Below, in pieces: positions 30,507 to 50,700 of a stretch of 64,000 bases of DNA. Where the stretch lies: the NCBI RefSeq assembly GCF_024223415.1, contig NZ_CP100500.1. One strand, given 5' to 3'. Position 1 is the stretch's first letter, and every line of letters starts with the position of its first letter. The notes under the pieces were generated by a model, which was not told the origin of the DNA, ran no database searches, and worked only from the letters and a program-made list of their open reading frames with translations. Both the position numbers and the translations under genes were made by a program. Source of the stretch: Escherichia coli (GTDB taxonomy: Bacteria; Pseudomonadota; Gammaproteobacteria; Enterobacterales; Enterobacteriaceae).

Positions 30507-30554
30507 AAGTGAATAAGTGAATAAGTGAATAAGTGAATAAGTGAATAAGTGAAT
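30507..30554. repeat. 8-bp tandem repeat (aagtgaat) x6 in the 5' leader of the antirestriction gene
   Basis: Six perfect tandem copies at 30507-30554 plus a partial copy overlapping the start codon region (30491-30501). Confidence 0.9.
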
Positions 30555-30594
30555 AGATAAGAGAGAAAAGGCTGCGCCTCTCAGGCAGAAGGCA

Positions 30595-33806: not shown

Positions 33807-35304
33807 TGTGAAAATATTAAATTTATATTACATTTTAATTATCGACAAAAAACACATAAAGAAATCTAAAGGGAATGAGCGTCAAATGAGCTGATATAGC
33901 GCCAGTTTGGTATGGTCATGTGATTTGATGATTAAAGCTTACGGATAATAACACTCCTCTGTGAGCCATATAAATGAGCATGCCATAATCGTCAGTTCAG
34001 AGATAAAACTGACTGAATGATCTTATGTTATAGTAAGCAGTGTTTACCGGATACGATGACTTATCTCTCTCACATCATATGGATTCACTTTCATGGGGTA
34101 AAGCGATGGGACTACAGACGCTGATTATGATGGTTTGCTGTAAAGTTAGCACAAGTTTTTGCTGTACAGAATACGGAGTAAGAAAAATAATTCCAGAGTA
34201 AATCTGCTCTGCTTTTGAACAGAAAAGATTCATGCTTACCGTGAAAAACTGAAACCAACATTCAGTCTGCATGGATGTCTTAAGATGTTGAGAATGTCGG
34301 ATATGGTATTATATACACCTTTTCCATTAGGTCCTTTTATGTTTTCATTAAGTCGTTTTGTATGTATTCCTCCAGTGATTCATTAGTGCCTGTTTACGCA
34401 TTTACACACTTTTCCCATTAATCTCCTTTAAATGTGTTTCATTACGCATTGCTGTACACATTTTTGAACTGATACACATCCAAGTTAGTAAACCTGTCAG
34501 TTCTGATTTTACGTTAACTAAATCAGTTTAATGCTGCTGTAAAACAATCCTTCCTGTTTAAGCAATCAATCTGCTATTCGATTTTACTGATGTGACGTTT
34601 AACCTTTCCTGAGCTTTGGTTGTTTGTGGTTTTTGGTTTGTGTTTCGACGTTAAGCTGAGAAAAGTATCTTTACGCTAAATCAACCCGAACTTTCCTGAG
34701 GTGATCTGACGTTCTTTTCGATGTGCTTACGACGATTCTGTTAAACGACTTTCTGGATGTTTTGATAACAATCAGATTGAGGCATTAACGATTCCTGACG
34801 TTTTGCTTTTTCATGTAAGGTCATTGTTTTCGTCATGATGTGGTTTTTCTTCTTGCATTGCGAAAGTGTGATGATTGGTTTTGGTTTTTTGATTCAGATG
34901 AGATTTACGTTATCGATGGTTAATCGTTTTTATGGTGAGTAGTGAAACGTAACATTTTCGGGATGAGAAAATCGATTCTGATGGTGATGGGGATGATCGT
35001 GTTACGGCGTTATCTGTAAACAGGTTTTAAACGTGTCATTCGCATTCGTGATTGAGTTGTGTGATTAAGCTGTAGGTTTTGGCGTTGTTGTTGATTTGCA
35101 TTGCCAGGAAGCGTTCTGGTTGCGTTTCTGGTGTTTTGTTCGAATGTTCTGTGGATCCTTTTCCCTTCAGGCTTTTCTCGTCGTCCATGTCGTTTTTAAA
35201 TCCATTCATGCTGTTGTTGCGTGTTTTGCTGCTGTGTGCAGGATTATCTTTTCGTTCCGGGATGGTTTGTTCCGTTTCAATCACTCTTAATCAGAGAGTT
35301 GTAG

Positions 35305-35379
35305 CATTGCTTAATGACATGATGCCGTAAAGTTTTACCGCGGTGATTAATGATGTGAAGTCAATCCAAATCAACGGAG
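35305..35379 (+). promoter_or_regulatory. conserved leader motif upstream of Rep-like genes (second copy at 42311-42344)
   Basis: cattgcttaatga...tgtgaag...tcaa...cggag occurs just before the start at 35390 and again about 150 bp before the start at 42494; the 35k copy has an internal duplication of ttaatga. Confidence 0.4.
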
Positions 35380-35389
35380 ATCTCTCATC

Positions 35390-36121
35390 ATGAATCAACC
35401 AATACACAATGCTTACTGGTTATCCCGTTTTGACAGCCTTCTCGACAGTGCCCTGTCGCAGCACCGTGCCGTCTCGTTAATCCGGGTGGATTTACGTTTC
35501 CCTGAGTATATGCCTGTCACCATCATGGATCCCGATCCGGATTCAGCGGTGATTTCTCGTTTTTTCGAATCCCTGAAAGCCAAAATCCAGGCTTACCAGC
35601 GGAAAAAACGACGTGCCAACAAGCGTGTGCGTGCAACCACTCTGCGTTATTTCTGGTGTCGGGAGTTTGGCAAGGAAAAAGGCAGGAAACATTATCACGT
35701 GATATTGCTGCTCAACAAAGATACCTGGTGCTCGCCAGGGGATTTCAGCGAACCATCTTCGCTGGCGACGATGATCCTGGAGGCATGGTGCAGCGCCCTG
35801 CATCTTGAGGCCTGGCAGGGTAATGGACTGGTTCATTTTTCCAGGCGGACGCCTTTCCGTAAACCGACATCATCTGATGCTCGCCCTTCTTCCGATGATA
35901 CGCCTTTGTCGGGTGGATGTTCTGATACCAGGAAGGCTTCAGACAAAAAGCCGGGTGAAGCCGCTGTTCTCTGGATCAAGCGTGGTGATGTGGCAGCGAT
36001 GCAGAAAGCCCGGAAAAGAGCCCGTTATCTCGTGAAAAATCAAACGAAGCAGCATAATGGTTCCGGTCAACGTAATTATGGTTGCAGCCGTGGGCCGGGG
36101 CGTCTGCTGGATGGCAGGTGA
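35390..36121 (+). CDS. YagK/YfjJ-family protein (inovirus Gp2-like, HUH Rep-like)
   Basis: 243 aa; HUH-like motif KHYHVILLL; RBS ggag; preceded by a 1.5 kb noncoding leader. Confidence 0.65.
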   Translation: MNQPIHNAYWLSRFDSLLDSALSQHRAVSLIRVDLRFPEYMPVTIMDPDPDSAVISRFFESLKAKIQAYQRKKRRANKRVRATTLRYFWCREFGKEKGRKHYHVILLLNKDTWCSPGDFSEPSSLATMILEAWCSALHLEAWQGNGLVHFSRRTPFRKPTSSDARPSSDDTPLSGGCSDTRKASDKKPGEAAVLWIKRGDVAAMQKARKRARYLVKNQTKQHNGSGQRNYGCSRGPGRLLDGR

Positions 36122-36631
36122 AGTCTGTAAAACGGTATCCGGTGCCAGGGGGGGGATATCACGGTAAGGGCGTCAGCCAACGTCTTTCGCTCGTATTCTG
36201 ATAACCCGTCCTGAAGTCATGTATCTGCTTCCATTCTCATGTTCATATTTCTCTTACGCTTTCACTGTCTGTCATCGGAAGTACCGATTTATTTTGGTGC
36301 TGCGCACTTACGGCCATTCACGGAAGAGGATTGTGGTGAACAGTAGGAGTCTGGCTGCTGGCGAGGGAAGGTTCAGGACTGGTATGGGGTTTAGTGCTGG
36401 AGGATGACTTTGAATCCCGGATTGACCAGTGAGGGGGCAGTGAGAGGATGCTCTGGTGTAACAGGTCTGGATTACAAAATATAAAACCGGTTGTACACTC
36501 GTAACGGGTAAAAGGATACGGGCAATAACACGTGGTACCCGGTGAGACTGGCTCTTGTATCACATTACCGGGAATATTCTGGCAGGTGAAATGTTCTGAT
36601 AAGAATCATCCTGAGGGAGGATACAACGGAT

Positions 36632-37084
36632 ATGAACGTTATTGACAGCCGCATTCGTGATGTGAAATTTGGTGAAAATGTGAAAGTCGTCATGCCAGTA
36701 AACCTCTATGAATGTGAACTGGGGGATGATGTTTTTATCGGTCCCTTTGTGGAAATACAGAAGGGATGCATCATTGGCAACCGGAGCCGAATTCAGTCCC
36801 ACAGTTTCATCTGTGAGAACGTCATTTTAGGTGATGCCTGTTTCATCGGTCATGGCGTAACTTTTCCTAATGATCTGTTTAAGTGTGGTGGTCCCGATAC
36901 CTCTGCAGAAAGCTGGATACGCATCGTATTAGGTAACACTGTAACAGTGGGTAGTGGAGCGACCATTTTAACAACAGAAATTTGCAGTGGAGCTGTGATT
37001 GGTGCTGGTAGTGTGGTTACAAAGCCCGTGCTGGTAAAAGGCGTGTATGCGGGTAATCCGGCCAGACTTTTGAGAACGCTTTAA
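36632..37084 (+). CDS. hexapeptide-repeat (left-handed beta-helix) acetyltransferase
   Basis: 150 aa with repeated [LIV]-G-x-x-x-x hexapeptides (IGNRSRIQSHSFICENVILGDACFIGHGVTF...); RBS gaggga. Confidence 0.75.
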   Translation: MNVIDSRIRDVKFGENVKVVMPVNLYECELGDDVFIGPFVEIQKGCIIGNRSRIQSHSFICENVILGDACFIGHGVTFPNDLFKCGGPDTSAESWIRIVLGNTVTVGSGATILTTEICSGAVIGAGSVVTKPVLVKGVYAGNPARLLRTL

Positions 37085-37335
37085 TTATTGAATCCAATAT
37101 TAAACCAGACAGACAGTAAACATAATACTGTTCCGGATATCGCTTGCCGCAGGAACCTCCTTAACATTCAGGAAAATAAAGCTTTTATTGCTGCTATGTA
37201 CCATAAGAGACAGAAGTAATTGATTTACCAGTATTACACCTGTTGAAGCTATGGTTATTCACCTTTTATTTTTTGAGCAGCGTATTTATACTTCCCGGAG
37301 CATTGTTTAAATATAATCGCCCGGGATTGATTCGT

Positions 37336-38241
37336 ATGGCTCTTGAACAGGAAATCGCAAACCTTGTAAACGAGTTTGTCGCGGCTGGTCGTCCATCCTG
37401 TCGTGACCAGACCTTTGATGAACGCCGTGCCGGATATATCGCAAGTACTGCTCTGGCCGGCGATACAGAAACCCGCGTAAACATCAGTGATGTGATTATT
37501 GACGATGTTTTATTGCGCATATTTTCGCCTTTAAACGATGATGGGGTGTTATCCGCAATTGTCTATTATCATGGTGGCTGTTTTGTCAGTGGTGGTTTTG
37601 TAACCCATGATAATCAGTTGCGACAGCTTGCTTTCCTGAGCGGTTGTCGTGTCATTGCTGTACAATATCGATTAACGCCGGAACATATTTATCCTGCGGC
37701 ACATGACGATGCTGAACATGCCGCTAATATTGTGTGGCAACACGCAGAAATGTTGAAAGTTGATCGCAACAGAATAACGTTAATGGGGGATAGCGCTGGG
37801 GGACATCTTGCACTGATAACAGCACTGCGGGTTAAAAACATCGGTCAGTGGTTACCGCGAAAATTAATACTTATTTACCCTATGCTGGATGCCACAGCAT
37901 CATGTGATAGTTACAAATTAAACGGTAGTGACTATGTGCTGACAGCAGACACGTTTCTTAGTGGTTATGAGGCTTATTTTTCCGGTCAGGATTTAGAACA
38001 TCCGGAAGTGAGTCCATTATTCAGGAATGATTTCAATGGGTTACCACCTGTTCATGTCATCACAGCGGAATATGACCCATTACGCGATGAAGGTGAGGAA
38101 CTGTTTTCCCGTATGATTCAACAAGGAGTAAAGTGTACCGCCCAGCGTTATCTCGGTGTCATTCACGGTTTTTTCCAGCTTGGCGGCATTAGCCAGACAG
38201 CCCGTAATCTGATGCAGGATATTTGTGGGATTGTTAAATAA
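37336..38241 (+). CDS. alpha/beta hydrolase, esterase/lipase (HSL/Aes-like) family
   Basis: Oxyanion-hole motif HGGCF (YYHGGCFVSGG) and nucleophile motif GDSAGG; start placed at the internal Met MALEQEIANL (track ORF begins at 37243). Confidence 0.65.
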   Translation: MALEQEIANLVNEFVAAGRPSCRDQTFDERRAGYIASTALAGDTETRVNISDVIIDDVLLRIFSPLNDDGVLSAIVYYHGGCFVSGGFVTHDNQLRQLAFLSGCRVIAVQYRLTPEHIYPAAHDDAEHAANIVWQHAEMLKVDRNRITLMGDSAGGHLALITALRVKNIGQWLPRKLILIYPMLDATASCDSYKLNGSDYVLTADTFLSGYEAYFSGQDLEHPEVSPLFRNDFNGLPPVHVITAEYDPLRDEGEELFSRMIQQGVKCTAQRYLGVIHGFFQLGGISQTARNLMQDICGIVK

Positions 38242-38487
38242 TCACGTAACAAGCAGCTACAGGTAAATTAGCTGAGCATGCATCCATCATTTGTCGCTGC
38301 GATGCCAGACTTCCGGATGCTCATATGTTGTTTTACTTTTGTCAGCATAAATGCTGCGTCGGGACTGGTGAATGGAGATAAGCCATTTTATTATCGACGT
38401 CAGAGAACATACTCACAATGTCGGTATGTTTCTGAAATTAAGGGTAAGTTTTGCGCTGATTACAGTATGCGAAGGAGATCTGGCACA

Positions 38488-40080
38488 ATGAATCCCGCTT
38501 ATATGCAATCCCCCCATTTCCCGGCAGATTTAACATACAGATTATTTCCTCGTAAGCTTGCGTATCTCATTGACGACTTATATGAAAGTACCCAACTTCC
38601 GCTGGATCTCATTTTTAATACTGTACTGGCAACGCTCTCACTCTCCTGTCAGTCATTGGTTGACGTTGTTCATCCTCACACCAACATGCCGGAACCCTGC
38701 TCACTTTATCTGTTGACAATCGCAGAGCCAGGCGCGGGAAAAACAACGATAAACAGACTGGTGATGAACCCCTGTTACGACTTTGCCGATCGACTCATTC
38801 AACAATACGAAGAGAGAAACAAAGATTATAAAACTGAACTACAGATCTGGAATACCCGACAGAAAGCTCTTTCTGCCAGTTTAAGAAAGGCTATTAACCG
38901 GGGGTATCCGGGAGAACAGGAAGAAGAGGCGCTGCGTAATCACGAAAGAAATAAACCGACACGTCCGGTTCGACCGAATTTTATCTATGAAGATGTTTCA
39001 CTTAAAGCGCTTGTGGAAGGACTCAACGAGCATCCGGAGGCGGGAGTTATTTCTGATGAAGCGGTAACTTTTTTCAGAAGCTATCTGAAAAATAGTCCTG
39101 GTCTGTTGAATAAAGCATGGAGTGGACAACCGTTTGATTTTGGACGGGCTGACGAGAAATATCATATCACTCCACGCCTGACATTTTCGCTAATGTCCCA
39201 ACCGGATGTTTTTACGGCTTATATAAATAAAAATGATGTACTGGCCAGGGGAAGCGGATTTCTTTCCCGGTTTCTGTTCAGTCAGGTTGTAAGTTCTTCC
39301 TGGATACGTGATTATACGAGAGGTGAGTTCAGAACAATACCAACCCTGGAGAATTTTCATAAAAAGATTAACGGATTTCTGTTAAGCCATAACATTAATT
39401 CCCCCGGCATGAGCACCGAAAGGAAGACATTAAAACTTGCGAAGAAAGCGTTGGGGGAGTGGCAGGAAAACCAGAGTAAGATTGAAAGCAAAGCGCTTGC
39501 AGGAGGGGAGTGGGAACACATCAGAGATATTGTTCTGAAAGCAGGTTCTAATATACTGAGGATAGCGGGTTTATTCACCTTCTATGGCAATAAAGATGCT
39601 GAGGAAATTGAATCAATTGCGCTTTTTAACGCCATGCATCTCATGGACTGGTATCTGGAGGAGGCAAGCGCAATATTTTATCCCATGTCTGAGCGACGCC
39701 AGTTTGAGCAGGATGCCTGTGAACTGTATGCATGGATTATGACCCGAATCAGGCAGAATAACTGGTGTGCTATCAGGAAAACAGATATTGAAAGATATGG
39801 TCCCAATCGACTGAGAAGAGCAGAAAAGCTTACACCTGTACTCAATCAGTTAATTGCTCAGAATTATTTCTGTATCATCAAAATGCGCTCGCATCAGGCA
39901 CTTTATGTTTCTGTTCGTAACAATAATGGTTACCTCCTTCCTTTCGGCACAATGTCTTACGAACCGTTTGATGTTGTACCCTCCTTGTATAGTCATAATG
40001 CGAAAATATATCCCGTTAATATTCCACCGGAATTAATCCAGTCATTTGCGTTACCTTTTTCAGCCTATAACTTATTCTGA
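38488..40080 (+). CDS. DUF3987-like primase/helicase-type P-loop protein (YfjI-like)
   Basis: P-loop AEPGAGKTT; start placed at the Met with RBS aaggag (track ORF begins at 38278); typical partner of AlpA and Rep-like genes in P4-like islands. Confidence 0.65.
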   Translation: MNPAYMQSPHFPADLTYRLFPRKLAYLIDDLYESTQLPLDLIFNTVLATLSLSCQSLVDVVHPHTNMPEPCSLYLLTIAEPGAGKTTINRLVMNPCYDFADRLIQQYEERNKDYKTELQIWNTRQKALSASLRKAINRGYPGEQEEEALRNHERNKPTRPVRPNFIYEDVSLKALVEGLNEHPEAGVISDEAVTFFRSYLKNSPGLLNKAWSGQPFDFGRADEKYHITPRLTFSLMSQPDVFTAYINKNDVLARGSGFLSRFLFSQVVSSSWIRDYTRGEFRTIPTLENFHKKINGFLLSHNINSPGMSTERKTLKLAKKALGEWQENQSKIESKALAGGEWEHIRDIVLKAGSNILRIAGLFTFYGNKDAEEIESIALFNAMHLMDWYLEEASAIFYPMSERRQFEQDACELYAWIMTRIRQNNWCAIRKTDIERYGPNRLRRAEKLTPVLNQLIAQNYFCIIKMRSHQALYVSVRNNNGYLLPFGTMSYEPFDVVPSLYSHNAKIYPVNIPPELIQSFALPFSAYNLF

Positions 40081-40856
40081 AATAAACCAACACAGATGAA
40101 ACGAAAAAAAACAACATTCATTCGAAGGTTGGTGGTAAGGAGTTTGCATATCCTGCATCTGTGCAAATATTCACCAGTTATGGGGCGCGAACGAAAATTT
40201 CTCTGAAAAAATCGCTACGGTAGCAACAGTAGCAGCACATGCACCATGTCTGTTATTTGATTTTGTTTTCATAATGACCTGTTGTCAAAGCTGATTGAAT
40301 ACAGGAGTGTGCGCACTGGTGGAAGAGTGGCTTTCGTTTTTGGTTATTCGAAAGAAAATCGAAATATTGTTTTTAACATAGCTGAAGCTAATCATATAAC
40401 CATATTTTTTGAGTTTTTATATATAACTTTGTTTGATTCTTGTCGTAATGAGTGCTGGCGTATATGACGATGTCGCTCTCTTTCTGAATAACGAAAGGTT
40501 ATCAGTCTTTTACTGACAAGAGATGCTGTTCAGGTTTCAATGGGAGATTGAAGAAAAACGATTTGATATTTTCCGTGAGAGAATGTCTTGTCAGGTTCAT
40601 ATTCATAACGGATAATTTCTTATTTTCACTCATCAGACATGGATAATTTTAATTTAGGTTTATTACTATAATTAGTATCTGTTCCTTTATTTTTATCCAT
40701 CTATCCCTTTATTTTTCATCTATCTATCCTTTTATTATTAGTATCTGTATTTTTATTATTGGCATCTGTCTATTTATTTTTATCATTCTCTCCTCTCTGT
40801 CTTTACTCTCATTGCTCTTACTCTCATTCTGTTATTTCTACTCGTGTTATCGTGTT

Positions 40857-40944
40857 CACTCTATCACTCTATCACTCTATCACTCTATCACTCTATCACT
40901 CTATCACTCTATCACTCTATCACTCTATCACTCTATCACTCTAT
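40857..40944. repeat. 8-bp microsatellite (cactctat) x11 inside a pyrimidine-rich repeat-dense noncoding region
   Basis: Eleven perfect tandem copies; degenerate ~22-bp and ~14-bp repeats lie just upstream (40660-40856). Confidence 0.9.
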
Positions 40945-41689
40945 CCATCTCTCAATCATAACGATTGTCACTCATATGATACTCAGCCATGTTATTTTCT
41001 ACTGCTCTGCTGAGCTTATCTGTCTGTTCTCATCTTCAGTGAAACAGCACCTGATTTTACTCTTATCCATCATGAACTGTCTTTGTTCAACGATGATGGT
41101 ATGTCTGATATGTGTTAACCATTTTGATGGGTATCGTTGATTATCCGATGGTTAAGCTTCGATAAGGTTATCCATAGAACAGTGTGGGGTAAGCAACATG
41201 ATCCCTGATGATATTTGTTCCGTGTTGTCTTGTTGTTTAAGCGACAGGAAATATGTCAATGGCATGTTTTATTCTGCTGCCGTGAGCCATGCATGTTCTG
41301 AAGAACAGATTGAATGAGCGCATGTGAGTTTATTACGTTGGCCTTGTACACGTTTTTTTAGAACCACTGAGAGCAAGTTTGTAGTTTATGATGCTATTGG
41401 TCGTAATATGTTTCTTGAACTTTTGATCGTGGGTTTTTATCTCGTATTTTTCAGCATTTCTCGGTGTTGTATTGCGTCGATATTTTCTTTATTCCCGTTA
41501 ATATCATCTCGTCAGTGTCCATTCCTTTCATCACAATGCGTATCGTTAATAATCTGTTGTATCCATCCGCCTACAGCATGCCTGATAAATACCGTCTGTC
41601 AGTTATTACCGTTTTAGATCTGATTATGAGCGAAGGTATTCATTCGCTGACAGAACTTAAAACGTCATTAACTTACAGGAGTTATCAGC

Positions 41690-42240
41690 ATGCCTCAGTC
41701 TTACACACCAGACTGGTTTTTTACCGCCTTACTTGACCATCACATCGATCAAATGATGGCTCGCTATTCCTGTCTGCGGGCCTTACGGATGGATTTCTTC
41801 TACAGGAAAGAGACGCCTGATTTCTTACAACCTGATCACCGCTGGCTTGAATTGCAGTTGCGTATGCTGCTGGACCAGGTTGAACGGTTTGAAAATATGG
41901 TTGGTTTCTTCTGGGTGATTGAATGGACGGCTGATCATGGTTTTCATGCGCATGTGGTTTTCTGGATCGATCGTCAGAGGGTGAAAAAATATATCCCTTT
42001 GCGGAGCGGATAACCGAATGCTGGCGGGCTATTACGTATAACTGTGGTTCGGCGCACCGCTGTACATACCAGCCGCATTATGCATACAACATCAACATTC
42101 CCGTGCGCCACAACGATCCTGAAAGCATCGATAATATTCGCGGTGCCCTGCATTATCTGGCGAAAGAAGAGCAAAAAGACGGACTGTGTGCATACGGCTG
42201 CAGCGAAGTGCCTGAACGTCCTGCTGCAGGGCGACCACGC
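41690..42240 (+). pseudogene. YagK/YfjJ-family Rep-like gene, frameshifted
   Basis: MPQSYTPDWFF...DHGFHAHVVFWIDRQ (HUH-like HAH) then continues in another frame (...ITYNCGSAHRCTYQPHYAY...ALHYLAKEEQKDG...). Confidence 0.5.
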
Positions 42241-42493
42241 AAGCTTCACGTCTGAAGCTTAAACCCTGAACCTCCGCACCTGGAAACAAGCCATCGGTAA
42301 AAACTTACCGCATTGCTTAATGATGTGAACCGAAGTCAACGGAGTTCATTCACCCTGAATGTTCTTTCCTGATATTCCCGCTCAGCGTCGGTTCTTCACC
42401 TGTTCCATCAACCTCATCCGCAGCCTGTAACCCGTCAGCCCATCCATCCCCGGGCAGGACGCGTTGTGGGCTGCGCATAACGGAGCATATCCT

Positions 42494-43069
42494 ATGAATG
42501 CTTTCCCTTATTTCGACGACAGCATGGCCCCCTTCTGGCCTTCGTATCAGAACAAAGTTATTGGCGTTCTTGACCGTGCGCTGCGTGAGCAGTCCGGCTC
42601 CCGGATACGTCGTATCCTGCTTCGTCTGCCGTGGGAACCCGATAACACCTTCAGCAGCCGCAGGACCTGGTTCGGTATGGCCTTTATTGAAACCGTCAGC
42701 GACCTGATGAATGCAACCCCCGGACGTGACCTCTGCTGGCTCCTGACACGTCATCCTGAAAAGCTGGAATACCACGTGGTGCTGTGCGTCAGGCAGGAGT
42801 ATTTCGACGGCCCTGAACTGGATCGGCTGATTCTGGATGCCTGGAGCAACGTGCTGGGCTTCGCCTCACCGGGGGAAGCGGCACCGTATCAGAAGCAGAT
42901 TACCCGGGATGTGCTGCTGGATCCCCGTTCACCGGACTGCGAGGAACTGTTCAGAGACCTGATCTGGGCGTTCAGTGATTTCGCACGTGATCGCCGGGGG
43001 GTATACGATCCGGAAGCCCGTCACCTCGCCGGTAATCCCTGGTATCCCGGATCAGCAGGACGGCGCTGA
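42494..43069 (+). CDS. YagK/YfjJ-family-like protein
   Basis: Start at the ATG with RBS ggag (MNAFPYFDD...); ...EYHVVLCVRQEYF... region; sits between the frameshifted paralog and alpA. Confidence 0.5.
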   Translation: MNAFPYFDDSMAPFWPSYQNKVIGVLDRALREQSGSRIRRILLRLPWEPDNTFSSRRTWFGMAFIETVSDLMNATPGRDLCWLLTRHPEKLEYHVVLCVRQEYFDGPELDRLILDAWSNVLGFASPGEAAPYQKQITRDVLLDPRSPDCEELFRDLIWAFSDFARDRRGVYDPEARHLAGNPWYPGSAGRR

Positions 43070-43133
43070 ACATCATGTTCAGCCGTTCCCCCGAACTTAC
43101 ACATCCTTCCATTTCACCGAGGATATTCCGACC

Positions 43134-43367
43134 ATGTTGAGCACAACAACATCCCACGACAGCGTATGGTTGCGTGACGACGATCCCCTGATCGACATGA
43201 TTTTCATCACCAGTTTCACCGGCATGACCGACAAATGGTTCTACCAGCTGATGAGCGAAGGCAGGTTCCCGAAGCCCATCAAACTGGGCCGCAGCAGCCG
43301 CTGGTACAGAAGCGAAGTGGAGCAGTGGATGCAGCAGCGCATCGAAGCATCACGGGGAGAAGCATGA
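43134..43367 (+). CDS. alpA: AlpA-family phage regulatory protein (small HTH)
   Basis: 77 aa; ...LIDMIFITSFTGMTDKWFYQLMSEGRFPKPIKLGRSSRWYRSEVEQWM... is the classic AlpA/prophage CP4-57 regulator signature; RBS gagga. Confidence 0.75.
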   Translation: MLSTTTSHDSVWLRDDDPLIDMIFITSFTGMTDKWFYQLMSEGRFPKPIKLGRSSRWYRSEVEQWMQQRIEASRGEA

Positions 43368-43548
43368 AAGGTATTGTGATACCGGTTCGCTGGCAATGTG
43401 CAAACTGCCGGCGCTGGTATTGTGGTAATCCCCCCTGCCCCTGGTGCTGGCGACCTGCTGCACCGTCTGTCATTCCTCATCCTTCGCTGTAACAGGCATC
43501 GTACCGGTGCCGGCGTGCTTTCCTGTGCACCGGCACCGGTTCAGAAAC

Positions 43549-44085
43549 ATGCAAAGAGAGCAAATCGTGCAGATAACCGAAACCGTACTTTCAGAGCCGG
43601 TGGAAATCCGGCGTTTTATTCAGCAGGCGGTGGATCACTGGCCGCGTCTGCTGGCCGTTCAGTTCACACTTCATTCAACAGGAGGAAATTGTGACGGGAG
43701 GCAGATTCATGCGTTTTACTGGGCATTTTACCGACAGCTGAATCAGCGAAGCCATACCGGATATCCGTTACTGCCGGTGGTGCTACGCTGGCTGCGGGAA
43801 ACGACAGAAAGCACAGACAGCACCGGGATACGCTGTCTGTTGCTGATCAGCCAGGATCTCATTTGCCCACCAGGATCCAGAATGACGTCTGATGACGCTG
43901 ATTCGCACCTTGTGGCGTTACTGCAGCAGGCCGGCACCACACTCACGGCAGAAGGGCACTGTACGGTGGTATGCTGTTACAGGGTGGTGCGTGCAGCCAC
44001 ACCTGAAGGCGCTGAGTCACTCACGGCATTCAGAAACGCGTGCCTTTCGTTGGCCAGGCCCGTGATGGCCGGCATCATCCGCTAA
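43549..44085 (+). CDS. hypothetical protein (island-associated), start uncertain
   Basis: ORF 43444..44085; first ATG in a plausible context at 43549 (MQREQIVQITE...); no recognisable motif. Confidence 0.35.
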   Translation: MQREQIVQITETVLSEPVEIRRFIQQAVDHWPRLLAVQFTLHSTGGNCDGRQIHAFYWAFYRQLNQRSHTGYPLLPVVLRWLRETTESTDSTGIRCLLLISQDLICPPGSRMTSDDADSHLVALLQQAGTTLTAEGHCTVVCCYRVVRAATPEGAESLTAFRNACLSLARPVMAGIIR

Positions 44086-44211
44086 GCAACATGATGTATC
44101 CCGGTTCAGCCGCTGAAACCGGCTCCTTCAGCAGCAGACCGGTATGAGGTTGTTCCCCCGGACATTCCTTCGTAGAATCCGTGCTGTGTTCGTACTTCCG
44201 GAGCCGTCGCC

Positions 44212-47057
44212 ATGAAAATCTGTCTTTACCATACCCTGAATCCTGAAACGATCCCGGGCTATAAAAAGTTTGCGCAGGCCATTGAGGCAGATAATTTCGC
44301 GCAGGCGGATGTGCGTAAAATTGATACTAATCTCTACCGGGCACGCCTCAGTATCCGGGATCGGTTGTTGTTTTCACTTTACCGTTACCGTGGTGAGACG
44401 GTCTGCCTGGTACTGGAATATCTGCGTAACCATGCTTACCACACGTCACGTTTTCTGCGCAGGAATGTGGTGATCGACGAGGCGCGGCTGCAGCTGCAAC
44501 CGGTGCCGGATCCGGCAGATGCAGACGCCGGTACACTGACGTATCTCAACCCCACTCACGGGCGTTTTCACTACCTGGATAAAATGCTCTCTTTTGATGA
44601 TGACCAGCAGGCGCTGTATGAACATCCGATGCCACTGGTGATTGTCGGCTCCGCCGGCAGCGGAAAGACGGCACTGTTACTGGAGAAAATGAAGCAGGCC
44701 GGGGGCGATATTCTGTATCTCAGCCTTTCGTCATTTCTGGTGGAAAAAGCCCGCACACTCTATCACGCATCTGGTGAAGAACATGACGGGCAGACCATTG
44801 ATTTTCTGTCGCTGAGCGAGTTTCTGGAAACCCTGCGCATTCCGGAAGGGCGGGAGGTGACGTTCAGTGCGTTCAGCAACTGGCTGCCCCGCAACCGGAC
44901 CACCGCTGCACTGGCCTCTGGCCATACCCTGTATGAGGAATTTCGTGGTGTCATTGGTGCCGTTGCTTCTGACAACGGACCGCTGTCCCGGGAGGCGTAT
45001 CTGTCGCTGGGAGTACGTCAGTCACTTTATGATATGGATGACCGTCCGGCGGTTTACGCCCTGTTTGAGCGTTATGTTGCATGGCTGAAACAGTCGCGTC
45101 AGTATGACAGTAATCTTCTCAGCCACCAGTACCTGCCACTGGCCGGGCACCGTTATGATGTGGTTTTTGTGGATGAAGTGCAGGATATGACGCCTGTGCA
45201 GCTGCGGCTGGTTCTGAAAACCCTGCGTCATCCCGGTCAGTTTGTACTCTGCGGCGATGCCAATCAGATAGTTCATCCCAGCTTTTTTCCTGGAGTGCCC
45301 TCAAAAGCCTCTTTTTCCGGCAGCAACAGAACGAGGCTGCCGTGAATATTCTGCAGGCGAATTACCGTAACGGGCACCATGTCACCGCACTGGCTAACCG
45401 GCTGCTCAGACTTAAACTGGCCCGGTTCAGTGCCATTGACCGGGAAAGTCACCATTTTGTCAGAAGCTGCGGGCAGACGGAAGGCACCATCAGGCTGCTG
45501 GAAGACCGGGAAGCCACCCGCCATGAGCTGAACAGCAAAACCTCCCGCTCAAACCGTGTGGCGGTGATTGTGATGCAGCCGGAGCAGAAAGCACAGGCCC
45601 GGCGCTGGTTCAGTACACCGCTGGTTTTTTCGGTTCAGGAAGTGAAGGGGCTCGAGTACGAAACGGTGATCCTGTACAACATGGTCAGCAGTACCCGTAA
45701 GGCATTTGATGATATCTGCGAAGGGATCAATCCGGCAGATCCTGAGGGTGAGGTGCGTTATGCCCACCCCCGGGACCGGCAGGATCGTTCAGCAGAAATC
45801 TACAGGTTTTTCACCAACGCGCTGTATGTTGCGCTCACCCGTGCCACGCACAACGTGTACCTTGTTGAGCAGGAGGTGGCCCATCCGCTGTGGTCCCTGC
45901 TGGCCCTCACGCATCATGAAACGCAACTGGAGCTGCAGGAAGAGATTTCCAGCCGTGATGAGTGGCAGAAAACCGCTCACCTGCTGGAAAAACAGGGGAA
46001 GCAGGAGCAGGCGGACACCATCCGCAGTATGATCCTGCAGGAGTCAGAAGTACCGTGGCAGATCTTCAGCGCAGAGGATGCGCGGCAGTGGAAACAGCAG
46101 ATCCTCAGCGGGACGGCGGACAAAGCCACGAAACTGCAGGCGCTGGAATACAGCCTGATTTATTCCCTGTTTCCGCTGTATAATGCGCTGTACCGGGAAG
46201 ATTTTAAGCCCACAAGGCAGCCCCGGACCCGGAGCCAGCAGTTACTGGAGCAGAAGTATTTTCGTCCCTACTCAGTGAATAATCCGGTCGCCGTGCTGAG
46301 GGATATTGAACGTTATGGTGTTGATCACCGCTCGCCGTTTAATCTTACGCCGCTGATGCTGGCAGCCCGGGCGGGGAACACGGCGCTGGTTCAGTTGCTG
46401 CTGGATCGTGGTGCCGATCCCACGCTGACGGCAAATGACGGGCTGGCGGCGTATCATCATGTTCTGTCAGCGGCGGTCAGCACGCCCCGTTATGCGCAGC
46501 AGAAGGGGGCACAACTCTATGCCTTGCCGGGACCGGAAAGCCTGTCACTGCAGGTGGAAGGGCGGCTTGTCAAACTGGACAACCGGCAGATGGCAATGTT
46601 TCTGGTGATCCTGATGCAGGCATTGTTTTACACGCATCTGGGGAATGCTCTGGTTTTTTCAGAAGCCTTCAGTGCGGCACGACTGGCAGAGTGTGTCGCC
46701 CACTTTCCTGAAGCCCTGCTGCCGGAACGCCGCAGGCGGAGGAATTATATCAGCAGCCAGCTTTCTCAGCATGAAGTTAACAGCAAGAACCCTTATGGAA
46801 AAAAGCTGTTTCTGCGACTGAGGCATGGTCAGTATATTCTTAATCCGGGGCTGAAAATCAGGCAGAATGACGGGTGGTACCCGGTTTACGACTTGCAGTC
46901 ACCGGAAGATCTCGGTCATGATTTACAGACGTATCTGCAGGACATGCCCCCGTACATTCTGGAGATTCTGGGGGGCAGGAAGGATGTTTACGAACAAAGT
47001 AAGGGGTCTGTCGGATACTGGGTGGCGATGATCCGCCGTCACAGTGGTGAGCCGTAA
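44212..47057 (+). pseudogene. UvrD/Rep-like SF1 helicase with C-terminal ankyrin-like repeat, split by a -1 frameshift
   Basis: ORFs 44212..45345 and 45342..47057 are consecutive parts of one helicase: Walker A GSAGSGKT, Walker B VFVDEVQD, GDANQ, then QANYRN and ALTRA motifs in the second frame; ankyrin-like TPLMLAARAGNTALVQLLLDRGADP; adding one T to the T6 run at 45283-45288 restores a continuous frame. Confidence 0.7.
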
Positions 47058-47125
47058 TGTTCCGCACTGCGCGGATATCCTGAAACATGTTCTGTTAATG
47101 TTACCTGGTTCAGAAGAGATAAACA

Positions 47126-48115
47126 GTGAGCAGCAGGAAAGAGAAAAATACGCCCACGCCGCATGATGCCGCCTTCAGGGCGTTTATGGCCTCAGCAGAG
47201 GTGGCCCGTGATTTTGTTGAACTGCATCTTCCGGCGGAATACCGGCAGTTGTGTGATCTGTCGACGCTGCGGCTGGAGCCCTGTACCTTTGTGGACCAGG
47301 ATCTGAAACAGTATGCGTGCGATGCGCTGTTCAGCATGAAGACCGTCAGCGGTGAGGAGGGGTATATTTATTGCCTCGCGGAACACCAGAGTACGGAAAA
47401 CGCGTTTATGGCGTTCAGGATGCTCAGATATGCGGTGGCGGCGATGCAGCGTCACTTTGAACAGCACCATGAGCTGCCGCTGGTGATCCCGCTGTTATTC
47501 TACCACGGTGAGCGGAGCCCGTACCCGTACAGCATGAACTGGCTGGAGTGTTTCAGAAATCCGGAACTTGCTGCTAAAATCTACACCAGACCGTTCCACC
47601 TGGTGGACGTGACGGTACTGGATGACGATGAGATAATGCAACACCGCCGAATGGGGGCACTGACGCTGCTGATGAAACACAGCCGCAGCCGCGACATCAT
47701 GCTGCAGATGGACAGGCTGGTTCAGCTGATACAGACTTCACTGAATGAAGAGCTGGCGAAGGCTCTGTTCCACTATCTGCTGAACGGCAGTGAACATGTG
47801 ACGGTAAGGTTTTTGCAGACGCTGGCGGAGCGGCTGCCACAGCATGAGGGCAACATAATGACACTGGCTGAACAACTGAAGCAGGAAGGGGAAGTCAAGG
47901 GATTTGAGCGCGGTATTGCCCAGGGTATGGAGCGCGGTAAGCTAGAAGGCAGAATGGAAGGCAGAATGGAAGGCCGTGCCGAAGGGCGACTCGAAGGACA
48001 ACTGGAAGGCAAACTGGAAACGGCGCGTAATATGTTGGCTGAAGGAATGGGGCTTCAGACCATCATGAAAATCACGGGATTGAGTGAAGAACAGCTGAAA
48101 AAAATCAGCCACTGA
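47126..48115 (+). CDS. Rpn-family recombination-promoting nuclease (YhgA-like, PD-(D/E)XK)
   Basis: 329 aa; N-terminal ...HDAAFRAFMASAEVARDFVELHLP... and C-terminal EGRMEGRMEGRAEGRLEGQLEGKLE repeats typical of Rpn/YhgA-like proteins. Confidence 0.8.
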   Translation: MSSRKEKNTPTPHDAAFRAFMASAEVARDFVELHLPAEYRQLCDLSTLRLEPCTFVDQDLKQYACDALFSMKTVSGEEGYIYCLAEHQSTENAFMAFRMLRYAVAAMQRHFEQHHELPLVIPLLFYHGERSPYPYSMNWLECFRNPELAAKIYTRPFHLVDVTVLDDDEIMQHRRMGALTLLMKHSRSRDIMLQMDRLVQLIQTSLNEELAKALFHYLLNGSEHVTVRFLQTLAERLPQHEGNIMTLAEQLKQEGEVKGFERGIAQGMERGKLEGRMEGRMEGRAEGRLEGQLEGKLETARNMLAEGMGLQTIMKITGLSEEQLKKISH

Positions 48116-48588
48116 AGCATTGAGGCGTGATGTATAGCACGCCTCGTTCTGTCTGACAGTATTTTGTTTCCTGTGTATTTGGTCGTTTCAGGTCAACCTT
48201 TGTCGGGAGCCTGGCGTTGGTACCTGCTGAGGAAAGAGGGAACTGGACGCAGAGTGACAGTCTGCGAATTGCAGGAAGAGGATGCGAAAGTGTTCGCTTC
48301 TTCCATTGTGTCCCTGATTTAAATTCGGATACTCAAATCTGAAGCGGTGACTCGTATACGTGTGAGTCACCGGGACTACCGCTTGAGTGATGAAAAATAG
48401 TCGTGTTAACGCAAAGCTGAAGTGACACATCTTATTTCAGCGAATGCGTTTGACCGCCTTACTATACACTTTTGAGCATTCTCTTTTCCTGACGGAAACC
48501 ACGAAGACGACAATCTTCTCGTCTATAACCTGATATACAAGGCAAAAAACCGTCAAGAGCAGGAGCAGGCGGTCCGCCAGACAGTCCA

Positions 48589-48909
48589 TTGCATAAGGCT
48601 ATCAGCTATATCCTGAAACGACCTGATGAGCTGTGCCGTTTTCTGGATGATGGCTCTGTGCCACCGGACAACAATATCTGCGAACGAGCCATCCGCCCGG
48701 TCACGCTGGGGCGAAAGGCATGGTTATTCGCAGGCTCGCTGATGGCCGGCAAACGCGCGGCACAGATAATGAGTCTTCTGGAAACAGCAAAGCGTAATGG
48801 TCTGGAGCCACATGCCTGGCTGACGGACGTACTGACGCGCCTGCCGGAGTGGCCTGAGGACCGACTGGCTGAGCTGCTGCCTCTTGAGGGATTTACCTTC
48901 TCCGGGTGA
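48589..48909 (+). pseudogene. IS66-family transposase C-terminal fragment
   Basis: ...NNICERAIRPVTLGRKAWLFAGSLMAGKRAAQIMSLLETAKRNGLEPHAWLTDVL... matches the conserved IS66 transposase C-terminus; no N-terminal part or accessory genes. Confidence 0.6.
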
Positions 48910-49004
48910 CACAACACCTGCCGTCAGGTCTTTGCACACCGGGCCATGGCCTGCTGTCGGGCGTTGAGCGCCTGACAGCGGGTTATTGAGAAAGTCAGTC
49001 ACCA

Positions 49005-49150
49005 TGCGCCTGGCTGACAGTCAGGACCTGCACGTCAGCGCCTCCCTTACCCTGGTCAGGACTTCACTGCCTGCCACAAACTCCCGTGTCAGTACTTCGC
49101 GGCCTGACGCGCTCACCCTACTCAGTCCTTCAGAGCCCGCCTCCGGTACC
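49005..49150. repeat. four to five degenerate ~34-bp tandem repeats at the sitB truncation point
   Basis: Units beginning gtcaggacctgcacgtcagcgcc..., gtcaggacttcactgcctgcc..., tcagtacttcgcggcctgacg..., tcagtccttcagagcccgcc...; they produce the repetitive tail of ORF 49021..49392. Confidence 0.5.
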
Positions 49151-49257
49151 TGGCAAGGCAGACGCCGGGGCGCAATAAAATAAATCAACCATCGCAGGGC
49201 GGCGATCATTCGCAACAACCGCTGATGACGAGCCCAGAAACGTGTCAAGACGATTTC

Positions 49258-49392
49258 ACCGGAACCGTTTACCCCAAGCAGAGCGGCAATAGATCCGCCT
49301 GGTACTGTGAAGGATGCATCGCGCAGTGCTTTCTGCCCGTTTCGCCAGGTGACAGTAACGCCATTAACGACAATACCCGCAGATTGCATCAT
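49258..49392 (-). pseudogene. sitB: sitB 5' fragment (metal ABC transporter ATPase), truncated
   Basis: MMQSAGIVVNGVTVTWRNGQKALRDASFTVPGGSIAALLGVNGSG then homology is lost inside the Walker A motif. Confidence 0.6.
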
Positions 49393-50306
49393 TACTTCTC
49401 CCTTTTCCCGGCTTTAATTCCCTGCACCAGCGTACTGGTAGTAACCTTCAGAAGGTCGATATACGTAGGTACCGGGCCGTTTTCTGTGCTCAGGGAATCG
49501 ACATAGAGCACACCGCCGTAGTGTGCGCCGGTTTCACGCGCAACCTGACGCGCTGGTTTATCGGAAACCGTACTCTCACTAAATACCGCTGGGATATTAT
49601 TTTTCTTCACTATATCAACCACTTTACGTACCTGCTGGGGGGTTCCTTGTTGATCGGCATTTATCGGCCACAGATAAAGCTCTTTTAGCCCCAAATCGCG
49701 TGCGAGATAAGAAAAAGCCCCTTCACTGGTGACCATCCATCTTTTATTCTCAGGGAGTTCAGCAATCTGCTTACGCAGGGGGGCAAGGGTTTGGGTAATC
49801 TTGGCTTTATAAGTATCGGCATTACGTTGGTATGTTTTTGCATTTGCCGGATCGTATTTTATCAACGCATCACGAATATTATCGACGTAAATCAAAGCAT
49901 TATCTGGCGACATCCAGGCATGAGGGTTAGGTTTTCCCTCGTAGGGGCCTTCGGTGATCCCTACTGGCGTCACACCCGAAGAGACAATCACTTCTGGAAC
50001 ACCACTGAGATGCTGGTAAAAGCGCTGGAACCACAATTCCAGATTCATACCGTTGGCGAGAATCAGTTGTGCCCCCTGCGCACGTTTAATATCGCCAGGG
50101 GTAGGCTGATACTCATGAATTTCTGCACCGGGCCTGGTTATGGATGAGACTTCTGCAGCATCTCCAGCCACGTTTTTGGCCATATCTGCGATGATGGTAA
50201 ATGTTGTAATGACCTTGAATTTTTCAGTTGCACTCGCCTGAAATGCTATCGAGCAGGTGAGGGCGAGGCACCCCAGGAGCATGGTTACTTTTTTTATTGA
50301 GTGCAT
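49392..50306 (-). CDS. sitA: SitA, Mn/Fe ABC transporter periplasmic substrate-binding protein
   Basis: 304 aa with signal peptide; ...EKFKVITTFTIIADMAKNVAGDAAEVSSITRPGAEIHEYQPTPGDIKRAQGAQLILANGMNLE... closely matches recalled SitA. Confidence 0.85.
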   Translation of the reverse strand: MHSIKKVTMLLGCLALTCSIAFQASATEKFKVITTFTIIADMAKNVAGDAAEVSSITRPGAEIHEYQPTPGDIKRAQGAQLILANGMNLELWFQRFYQHLSGVPEVIVSSGVTPVGITEGPYEGKPNPHAWMSPDNALIYVDNIRDALIKYDPANAKTYQRNADTYKAKITQTLAPLRKQIAELPENKRWMVTSEGAFSYLARDLGLKELYLWPINADQQGTPQQVRKVVDIVKKNNIPAVFSESTVSDKPARQVARETGAHYGGVLYVDSLSTENGPVPTYIDLLKVTTSTLVQGIKAGKREK

Positions 50307-50493
50307 AATTCAGTACCTATAGTGAGTAAAATTAGAACAAACATAGCAACGGCTATGTTTTATAGCATAAGCTATACACAATGCAAATGATTATCATTAG
50401 TAATTCAGACCCCAACACAGGCATTAGGTTGTTTCCTGCTGGCGATGTGGTATTGAGGAAAAGCGTAGGACAGATATCAGGCTTTGAAAGTAA

Positions 50494-50700
50494 GTGTTAA
50501 GTTAAGCGAACGCCGTATTGACGCTTACCCCAATGGGAGCACCATATTCCATGGCAGGAGTTCATCAACCATGCAGGAAGGCCATTCCGGTAGAACGTTC
50601 AGGATATGGCGCAGATACGCTTCCGGATCGATACCGTTCAACCGACAGGTTCCGATTAGTCCGTACAGCAGGGTACCACGCATTCCCCCCAGGTCAGTTC
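50494..50700 (-). pseudogene. IS66-family transposase C-terminal fragment
   Basis: Minus-strand translation ...LYGLIGTCRLNGIDPEAYLRHILNVLPEWPSCMVDELLPWNMVLPLG* matches the C-terminus of the intact IS66 TnpC at 12049..13587. Confidence 0.5.

Follow-up and report, generated by a model that had tools for sequence, protein, structure and literature searches.

A conserved, never-annotated non-coding region of Escherichia coli genomic islands starts with a hypervariable pyrimidine tract carrying copy-number-variable repeats

The replication origins of PICI/SaPI elements and the crr of P4 sit just 3' of the initiator gene, and crr, immediately 3' of alpha, carries 8-bp type I iterons of the form T(G/A/C)TTCAC(C/A). 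For phage satellites, DUF3987 is the domain used as the 'primase' marker (PMC10803314). In transcription termination, the canonical example of Rho utilisation (rut) regions in long untranslated leaders is rutA and rutB of lambda tR1; descriptors that are predictive of Rho-dependent termination include C>G bubbles and chains of spaced YC dinucleotides (PMC6144790). Such bubbles and chains are common in E. coli, at about 2-3.5 per kb (PMC6144790), and for this reason a rut-like composition alone is weak evidence. A further class of described systems comprises the bacterial VNTR or simple sequence repeat (SSR) contingency (phase-variation) loci, which contain perfect short-unit arrays within an ORF or between promoter elements; slipped-strand mispairing makes the copy number differ between near-identical strains and thereby switches expression. 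The locus studied here shares some features with all of these systems and differs from each of them in others. We conclude that it is a conserved, never-annotated non-coding region of about 1 kb in E. coli genomic islands, that it starts with a pyrimidine tract, and that this tract is most likely an untranslated leader or silencing region and not a replication origin.

The window, by which we mean the whole 64,000-nucleotide stretch of E. coli DNA that was analysed (contig NZ_CP100500.1), contains in this order the YfjI gene (DUF3987 helicase), a gap of 1.6 kb, a gp2/YagK-YfjJ HUH gene, an ORF and an AlpA-like gene. The earlier note on this DNA, made from the sequence without database searches, had placed the repeats between a DUF3987-like gene and a frameshifted Rep-like gene, and the database matches agree with it on both sides. 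The product of the upstream gene matches DUF3987 in Pfam (E=2.2e-75) and PHROG 2373 'DNA helicase' (E=2.7e-46), and the annotation of GF60 and of other genomes calls its homologues 'YfjI family protein'. The product of the downstream gene matches REP_ORF2-G2P (2e-5) and YagK_YfjJ_C (1e-4) in Pfam and contains the HUH-like motif HAHVV, and alignment with E. coli GF60 traces the frameshift to one A missing from an A7 run at 41984-41989. Sequence searches of the PDB gave no relatives for YfjI or for the gp2-like protein. For wider taxonomic sampling, a collection of genome contigs was scanned with the gp2-like protein and gave only two loci. The two gp2 paralogues each have a long upstream region, and these regions show no homology to each other. 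The operon formed by the gp2-like gene, the ORF and the AlpA-like gene belongs, as a module, to the backbone of genomic islands of the P4- or PICI-like kind, and the 1-1.6 kb stretch in front of it is part of the conserved backbone of such tRNA-associated islands. The coordinates of the features are collected in Table 1.

Table 1. Position of the genes, conserved parts and repeats in and around the gap (numbering of the window).
Feature	Position	Strand	Remark
yfjI-family gene (DUF3987; phage-type DNA helicase)	38278-40080	+	upstream neighbour of the gap
Unannotated stretch restricted to islands with yfjI upstream	40081-40617		from BLAST classes and alignment
Candidate 33-aa ORF, MKTKSNNRHGACAATVATVAIFSEKFSFAPHNW	40171-40272	-	intact and of the same length in 6/6 YfjI-type relatives
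Invariant 27-nt block, TTTAATTTAGGTTTATTACTATAATTA	40648-40674	+	conserved gp2 module has its left edge here
Hypervariable G-depleted pyrimidine tract	40675-40951	+	277 nt; all tandem repeats lie inside
Degenerate 23-nt repeat, x2.9	40676-40740	+	TRF, 81% matches
Degenerate 21-nt repeat, x2.7	40730-40786	+	TRF, 80% matches
Two 15-nt copies, TCTTTACTCTCATTG and CTCTTACTCTCATTC	40800-40829	+	read from the sequence
Perfect microsatellite, (TCACTCTA) x11.2	40856-40945	+	TRF score 180, 100% matches
Conserved ~740-nt non-coding stretch	40952-41689	+	ends at the gp2-like start codon
gp2 / YagK-YfjJ-type HUH gene	41690-42255	+	intact length 188 aa; frameshifted in the window

Comparison among genomes divides the gap into four parts, a yfjI-linked stretch of 540 nt, the invariant block of 27 nt, the hypervariable tract and a conserved stretch of ~740 nt. 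The gap is matched in 1565 of 5426 complete E. coli genomes (~29%), and none of the 1566 matching E. coli records carries any annotation inside it, PGAP never calling a gene there. Our search of the literature on yfjI/yfjJ/YagK, the Pfam family and the repeat strings found no description of the gap region. The region is absent from the phage collection searched, and the plasmid collection gave only 12 E. coli plasmids with island fragments and no non-E. coli plasmid. Exact scans of metagenomes recovered 99 loci with a 22-nt pattern from the invariant block and none with the flank of the window's own array. In CP4-57 of K-12 the yfjI-yfjJ gap measures only 152 nt, so that K-12 data are inapplicable to this region.

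The first of the four parts shows 80-85% identity among yfjI-carrying islands, about equal to the conservation of yfjI itself, and a single BLAST HSP against strain E06 extends over 38277-40715 at 89.7% identity. The candidate minus-strand ORF of this part shows both synonymous and non-synonymous changes among the six YfjI-type relatives and overlaps an invariant 34-nt core (40213-40246) that holds the palindrome GCTACGGTAGC. Its product is absent from the protein collection searched, and its translation is unproven because the overlapping frame is equally conserved. An RfaH ops element was also considered and rejected, the closest candidate, judged by eye, agreeing at 7 of 12 positions at ~40217.

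The DNA upstream of the invariant block splits into many unrelated classes, and island-class homology ends just upstream of it. The tract and the gp2 gene are kept together even in islands without yfjI. The block contains a perfect -10 hexamer, TATAAT, at 40667-40672. Among the 38 aligned representatives, which were partly ascertained by a 22-nt exact pattern from the block itself, the block is identical bar one position, TATAAT being replaced by TATTAT (hexamer position 4), and position 11 is C in L004. Neither a good -35 nor an extended -10 is recognisable in the block, and a simple promoter scan made no call there. With its consensus -10, the block may cover a putative promoter from about -31 to about -5, although invariance over all 27 nt is more suggestive of a site for protein binding than of an ordinary promoter.

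Immediately downstream begins the hypervariable tract, of which we found 51 distinct variants in about 100 loci, with lengths from 62 to 277 nt. Despite this diversity, its composition is closely confined: in the 51 variants the pyrimidine fraction is 0.72-0.81, G is 0.02-0.06 and C is 0.24-0.38, and two further tracts, L120 and L121, have G of 0.06-0.07. The bias is strand-specific and always on the sense strand of the downstream gene. The predicted folding of the tract is near zero, the mean MFE per nt over the variants being -0.015 as against -0.26 overall and -0.156 in low-GC controls. The earlier note had described the + strand as extremely C+T-rich over the whole 1.6 kb. This is true of about 40600-41050, where the pyrimidine fraction is 0.62-0.77 per 100 nt and where the top 400-nt pyrimidine window of the 64 kb lies (0.715 against a mean of 0.495, sd 0.043), but not of the flanks, since the fraction falls to 0.42-0.57 at 40100-40600 and to 0.48-0.57 at 41100-41400. 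No other 78-nt window of the 64 kb, whichever strand is read, exceeds the C>G skew of the one at 40881 in the tract region (C30, G0), and the longest C>G run, 40744-41018, is located there as well, so that an uninterrupted C>G skew extends over at least 78 nt of what would be the non-template strand. Chains of the type [(YC)N9-13]n reach 15 in the window and 4-15 in the relatives, with at least 6 in 25 of the 51 variants and 4-5 in the rest; the window's tract therefore combines at least six YC dimers spaced 9-13 nt apart with little RNA secondary structure, in agreement with the descriptors of PMC6144790.

Such a tract could also be a functionless spacer and mutational hotspot, dispensable DNA that separates a conserved element upstream from the conserved regulatory region, with a composition inherited from a duplicated pyrimidine-rich seed and a neutral microsatellite. 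The extreme variation in length and sequence speaks for this explanation, pointing to little constraint on sequence, and so do the mosaic structure of the tract, which is built of modules and local duplications, and the independent origin of arrays of different units in different lineages. Furthermore, the island has another 8-mer VNTR, unrelated to the first, at 30506-30555, a hint that this strain may be prone to slippage in general. However, a neutral spacer should drift or be lost, yet all 51 variants have remained G-poor, pyrimidine-rich and unfoldable, no tract shorter than 62 nt is found at loci with both anchors, and the bias never leaves the strand of the downstream gene. We regard a neutral spacer as rather unlikely.

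The tandem repeats lie entirely inside the tract. A perfect 8-bp microsatellite of eleven copies, degenerate repeats of ~22 bp and repeats of ~14 bp had all been described in the earlier note, and all are recovered here, the second as the 23-nt and 21-nt repeats found by TRF and the third as the two 15-nt copies (Table 1). The microsatellite is far beyond chance. Its unit TCACTCTA is present in 11 copies in the window and in 5 in GF60, a complete genome with a near-identical island, the sole further difference between the two tracts being one extra T in a T run; since GF60 carries the same array, the possibility of an assembly artefact can be set aside. In more distant W-like tracts the 8-mer is single, as one TTCACTC box in L120 and L121 and as TTCACTCTATC in the L008-type. 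The 23-nt and 21-nt repeats (40676-40786) belong to the window/GF60 lineage only and are missing from the other tract variants. Another lineage has expanded a G-free array of its own, (CCACCTTCT), with 1, 3, 6 or 7 copies, and tandem duplications occur in 24 of the 51 variants. Thus, the comparison of copy number across strains that had been proposed as a check upholds the suggestion of a slippage-prone variable region, and from these alignments the tandem repeats are judged to be real, recently expanded and copy-number-variable.

Copy number that differs among close relatives (11, 5 and 1 for the 8-mer; 1, 3, 6 and 7 for the 9-mer) is also what SSR contingency loci display, and the likeness extends to the perfect short-unit array that varies between near-identical islands. 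According to this explanation, repeat number would alter the spacing or the count of regulator sites and so switch or tune the operon. The unit can be read as ACTC plus a 4-bp spacer, presumably resembling arrays of the ParG/parH type, and one possibility for the regulator is a ribbon-helix-helix protein that reads ACTC boxes every 8 bp; a conserved motif is also found on either side of the tract, upstream CATGGATAA (40639) and downstream TTATCCATCATGA (41064). Unlike the arrays of contingency loci, however, this one lies in a presumed transcribed leader, outside any conserved ORF and not between a -35 and a -10; only one -10-like element is conserved, and the array follows it at a distance of 180-270 nt. 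Moreover, the 8-bp periodic array is found in one lineage only, separate lineages expand separate units with no on/off logic evident, tract length among the relatives follows no helical-phase pattern, and no ParA or RHH gene is annotated nearby in GF60 or the other carriers. Taken together, these observations make a contingency or operator-array function very improbable.

The earlier note had offered an iteron-type origin for the HUH Rep proteins as an alternative to slippage. In the version that we considered, which includes a cis-acting replication region, the direct TYACTC/TTCACTC boxes would be iterons bound by a replication protein of the island, either YfjI, the helicase, or the gp2-like HUH protein, and the AT-rich block would be the site of nicking or melting. 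The setting favours such a reading, because the region follows a replication helicase gene of satellite type at its 3' side, as do the PICI/SaPI and P4 origins, and 5' of an HUH Rep-like gene, and because DUF3987 is itself a satellite marker. Short (8-bp) repeated boxes are located beside AT-rich DNA, DnaA-box-like TTATCCAT motifs recur in the region, and at 7 of 8 positions the tract box T(A/G)TTCACTC agrees with the type I iteron of P4, TGTTCACC. TYACTC boxes number 34 against 5.3±2.1 in shuffles (~6-fold, in all relatives) and have a single orientation, although these sequences are related by descent and duplication could simply have produced the enrichment. However, P4 has an alpha-type primase-helicase and multiple type I octamers in both orientations, whereas the tract contains one TGTTCAC and its boxes are without exception direct repeats at irregular distances; most relatives have no more than 2-6 of them, with differences of 4 to 50 nt. 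The arrays are lineage-specific, and only in the window/GF60 lineage do they stand on both sides of an AT-rich stretch; in the relatives no AT-rich core stands between two sets of iterons in the manner of PICI/SaPI origins. In addition, the tract starts about 590 nt past the yfjI stop and travels with the gp2-like gene rather than with yfjI, YfjI has no sequence similarity to P4 alpha by BLASTP, and the region occurs in no phage and no non-E. coli plasmid of the collections searched. G-depletion, finally, reaches the spacers between the boxes and the unrelated VNTR unit (CCACCTTCT), a property for which an array that binds a protein on double-stranded DNA has no need. An iteron-type origin is thus left unsupported by the comparative data, and we consider an origin of replication unlikely.

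Between the tract and the gp2-like gene, the conserved stretch shows 71-75% identity to every class of relatives, and its last 150 nt are nearly invariant. Its repeated motifs include, besides that at 41064, GGTTATCCATAG at 41166-41177, which is GGTATCCATGA in most relatives. No ORF between the tract and the gp2 start is conserved among the relatives, and over the whole of 40675-41689 protein coding was rejected, given that there is no codon periodicity, ORFs are unconserved, indels are not multiples of three and PGAP calls no gene. This agrees with the earlier view that the ORFs called over the repeats merely translate them. The wider claim that all 1.6 kb are noncoding stands for this part and may fail in the first 540 nt, where the candidate 33-aa ORF is located. 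A structured ncRNA was likewise rejected: when 38 sequences were folded jointly by alifold, the covariation term was -3.35, compensatory changes supported 3 of 117 pairs and the tract stayed unpaired, and Rfam gave no relevant match at E<=1. An intrinsic terminator predicted at 41461-41480 was rejected, as it is unconserved among the relatives.

The reading that we prefer, with a probability of roughly 0.4, is that the repeats are slippage expansions in a tract at the 5' end of a long untranslated, Rho-silenced operon leader. Transcription would start a few bases past the invariant block. Over its first 60-280 nt the RNA would then lack structure, be skewed to C>G and offer Rho a run of YC dinucleotides for loading. 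With the ~740 nt that follow left untranslated, Rho would end most transcripts ahead of the operon and keep the replication and excision module silent. Override of termination by an island, phage or host factor would release the module from silence. The tandem repeats would be recent slipped-strand expansions in a tract that is kept G-poor, pyrimidine-rich and free of structure; since composition and not sequence would be constrained, the tract could tolerate duplications and deletions between short direct repeats and give rise to VNTRs such as (TCACTCTA) x1, 5 or 11, with two YC dimers per added unit. Counted against the leader model were the YC chains of many relatives, which reach no more than 4-5, the equal lack of structure in the antisense strand, and the consideration that duplication of a pyrimidine-rich seed could yield the composition without selection.

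In its resemblance to rutA and rutB of lambda tR1, the tract is a C-rich, G-poor, unstructured sense-strand run of YC dinucleotides upstream of an untranslated stretch. Between its commonest module and lambda rutA, 12 nt are the same (TTACACATTCCA), a match that was noticed post hoc and whose p of about 0.002 is our own rough estimate, and the second 15-nt copy of the window resembles rutA as well (GCTCTTAC..CATTC). The tract differs from the characterised rut sites in being much longer and far more variable and in containing VNTRs, and we recognised neither a nut/boxB-like element nor any known antiterminator site at it. Its transcription in this sense is predicted from the invariant -10-like block, and its Rho dependence is putative. 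A stronger version of the leader model is a 'Rho rheostat', in which slippage of YC-rich units would heritably and reversibly tune the Rho silencing of the gp2-like/ORF/AlpA-like module. We hold this version to be highly doubtful. If it were true, however, VNTR length would set the probability that an island wakes, in a family of islands that is very common in E. coli.

The tract, for which about 100 loci yielded 51 alleles, is a ready high-resolution typing marker. If either the rut reading or the origin reading is confirmed, the instability of the repeats would be linked to the control of island activity; otherwise it would be that of an ordinary VNTR. The four-part anatomy of the region provides concrete targets for how these islands silence their replication and excision module.

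The 1.6 kb gap that carries the repeats belongs to an island, and from 35321 to 50567 the window is 99.1% identical to E. coli strain GF60, whose genome is complete. The genes run from a gp2-family gene (243 aa) through an acyltransferase, a hydrolase and YfjI, a DUF3987 protein with a PHROG match to 'DNA helicase', to the gap, and beyond it to a gp2/YagK-YfjJ gene (188 aa when intact; Pfam match REP_ORF2-G2P), a 191-aa ORF and an AlpA-like HTH gene. DUF3987 proteins serve as a 'primase' marker of phage satellites (PMC10803314), which puts the module among P4/PICI-like elements. The gp2-like gene is frameshifted in the window by A6 for the A7 of GF60 at 41984-41989, its sole difference from the intact gene, which could be a homopolymer sequencing error or a real frameshift and gene decay. 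By BLAST, the gap is matched in 1565 of 5426 complete E. coli genomes, none of which annotates it, and we found no annotation or literature on the region. The phage collection does not contain it, and the plasmid collection has it only within fragments of the island carried by 12 E. coli plasmids; in K-12 CP4-57 the gap between yfjI and yfjJ measures only 152 nt. A similar ORF-poor, T-rich (A-poor) stretch of about 1.6 kb (33807-35389) precedes the other gp2 paralogue (35390-36121), with no detectable sequence similarity to the gap. At the window's edge, positions 1-2009 (GC 0.63-0.67) have no match in the 5426 genomes and may be a foreign insertion; the adjoining 2010-6000 matches several E. 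coli at 99.7-99.8%.

BLAST classes, alignments and 99 metagenome loci retrieved by a 22-nt stretch from the conserved block divide the gap into four parts. The block is identical in the 38 aligned representatives, themselves partly ascertained by a 22-nt exact pattern from this same block, save for one change, TATAAT to TATTAT. Upstream of it homology splits into many unrelated contexts, and the block is therefore the left edge of a module travelling with the gp2-like gene. The final 150 nt of the leader are nearly invariant across relatives. Coding sequence was rejected as an explanation, the leader showing neither codon periodicity nor a conserved ORF; structured RNA was likewise rejected, with no covariation-supported structure in the leader (3 of 117 pairs compensatory) and no Rfam match for the region. 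A TATCCAT-centred motif, kept in most relatives, flanks block and tract on either side; it resembles the DnaA box (TTATCCACA), with 7 of 9 positions matching. Remnants of island DNA are found on the conjugative plasmid pSCU-106-1 and on six similar IncK/IncI plasmids; these fragments comprise the block, the tract and the leader's initial ~170 nt, adjoin ireA and are truncated by an IS66 element.

Features of the gap and of a second microsatellite in the window
Feature	Coordinates	Observation
Part 1	40081-40617	only where yfjI is upstream; conserved equally to yfjI
Part 2, block TTTAATTTAGGTTTATTACTATAATTA	40648-40674	27 nt; near-invariant
Part 3, tract	40675-40951	all repeats inside
Part 4, leader	40952-41689	~740 nt; 71-75% identity across all classes
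23-nt repeat x2.9	40676-40740	TRF
21-nt repeat x2.7	40730-40786	TRF
Two 15-nt copies	40800-40829	sequence reading
8-mer microsatellite (TCACTCTA) x11.2	40856-40945	perfect; TRF score 180
34-nt core with palindrome GCTACGGTAGC	40213-40246	100% conserved
Candidate 33-aa ORF (MKTKSNNRHGACAATVATVAIFSEKFSFAPHNW)	40171-40272	minus strand
Promoter-like site	40288-40260	minus strand
Hairpin and T8	near 40100-40127	
TATCCAT-centred motifs CATGGATAA, TTATCCATCATGA, GGTTATCCATAG	40639-40647, 41064-41076, 41165-41177	
Second 8-mer microsatellite (TTATTCAC) x6.2	30506-30555	perfect; read on minus strand

The tandem repeats described in the earlier note were all recovered, and the microsatellite is real rather than an assembly artefact because it is found in an independent complete genome, GF60. 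The suggestion of a slippage-prone region also held, with 11 copies of TCACTCTA in the window, 5 in GF60 and 1 in the related tracts L120 and L121; GF60 otherwise differs only in a T run that is longer by one base. The microsatellite is therefore a young, lineage-specific expansion. Across about 100 loci the tract exists in 51 distinct sequences of 62-277 nt, a mosaic of modules related via insertion, deletion and local duplication, and 24 of the 51 hold tandem arrays with units of 8, 9, 11, 13, 15, 21 or 23 nt (TRF). Two arrays are both perfect and polymorphic, TCACTCTA and, in another lineage, CCACCTTCT (3, 6 and 7 copies in loci L015, L023 and L045, just upstream of the TCAATCATAA anchor; 1 elsewhere), which could be used as a typing marker. 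A contingency locus or operator array would agree with such copy-number polymorphism, but the position of the array does not fit and we consider this very unlikely. The second microsatellite lies in the 101-nt spacer from a DUF932 gene to an antirestriction-like gene, 13 nt ahead of the latter's Shine-Dalgarno sequence, where the closest relatives, L122 and L123, have an unrelated 81-nt spacer with no repeats. That one island has two 8-nt VNTRs, both in pyrimidine-rich spacers, may reflect a strain-specific slippage tendency.

The composition of the tract is conserved, its sequence is not. All 51 variants are 72-81% pyrimidine, 24-38% C and 2-6% G (up to 7% with L120 and L121) on the downstream gene's strand, and all are near-unfoldable (mean MFE/nt -0.015; the window gives -0.26 and low-GC controls -0.156), the antisense strand being equally unstructured. 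The pyrimidine richness that had been ascribed to the entire 1.6 kb applies to about 40600-41050 (0.62-0.77 per 100 nt), the 400 nt richest in pyrimidine anywhere in the 64 kb (0.715 versus a mean of 0.495, sd 0.043), and not to the rest; the region's first 500 nt and 41100-41400 are of ordinary composition. A neutral spacer with a mutational hotspot would account for the variability of the tract while leaving unexplained both its uniform composition and the absence of tracts shorter than 62 nt, and we regard it as rather unlikely.

The description of the repeats as a VNTR hotspot inside a conserved leader of the island is secure. Most facts fit a reading in which the region would be a transcribed, untranslated leader with a Rho-loading 5' end, and we give it a probability of about 0.4. 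By its extent and the consensus -10 at its 3' end the block would be a core promoter; its only polymorphism falls on hexamer position 4, and no recognisable -35 is present in it. Transcription would start where the variable tract begins, Rho would load on the unstructured, C>G-skewed, YC-rich tract RNA, and it would act in the ~740 nt without translation past the tract. A C>G bubble, YC-dimer chains and lack of structure are predictors of Rho-dependent termination (PMC6144790). On neither strand of the 64 kb is there a stronger or longer C>G bubble than the one inside the tract; chains of YC dimers at 9-13-nt spacing reach 15 in the window and 4-15 in relatives, and 12 nt of the commonest tract module are identical to lambda rutA. 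The G-free units of both independent VNTRs are expected if selection acts on single-strand properties and not on dsDNA binding sites. However, C>G bubbles are frequent in E. coli generally (PMC6144790), which weakens the rut-like reading.

The earlier note had also proposed an iteron-type origin for the HUH Rep proteins. The TYACTC hexamer box is about 6-fold enriched over dinucleotide shuffles, in a single orientation throughout, and the 8-mer array is one such box amplified. An iteron origin or crr at the repeats would suit a site flanked by genes for a helicase and an HUH protein, has precedents in PICI and P4, and finds an echo in the box T(A/G)TTCACTC, which resembles the P4 crr iteron TGTTCACC. 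However, the arrays are limited to particular lineages, most relatives have few and irregularly spaced boxes, the two-set architecture is absent, the tract goes with the gp2 gene and not with yfjI, and YfjI is unrelated to P4 alpha. We regard such an origin as unlikely.

In the yfjI-linked part, the candidate 33-aa ORF overlaps the invariant core and is uninterrupted, with the same length, in all six YfjI-type relatives. It is absent from the protein collection, and an overlapping Cys-rich frame (MCCYCCYRS...) is conserved as well as this ORF. The promoter-like site and the hairpin with T8 could instead define a small RNA of about 150 nt.

In summary, a VNTR in the G-poor leader of a mobile-element operon is a known type of phenomenon, and the TCACTCTA microsatellite is an ordinary young expansion. 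Its wide distribution and precise structure nevertheless make the region worth a modest follow-up.
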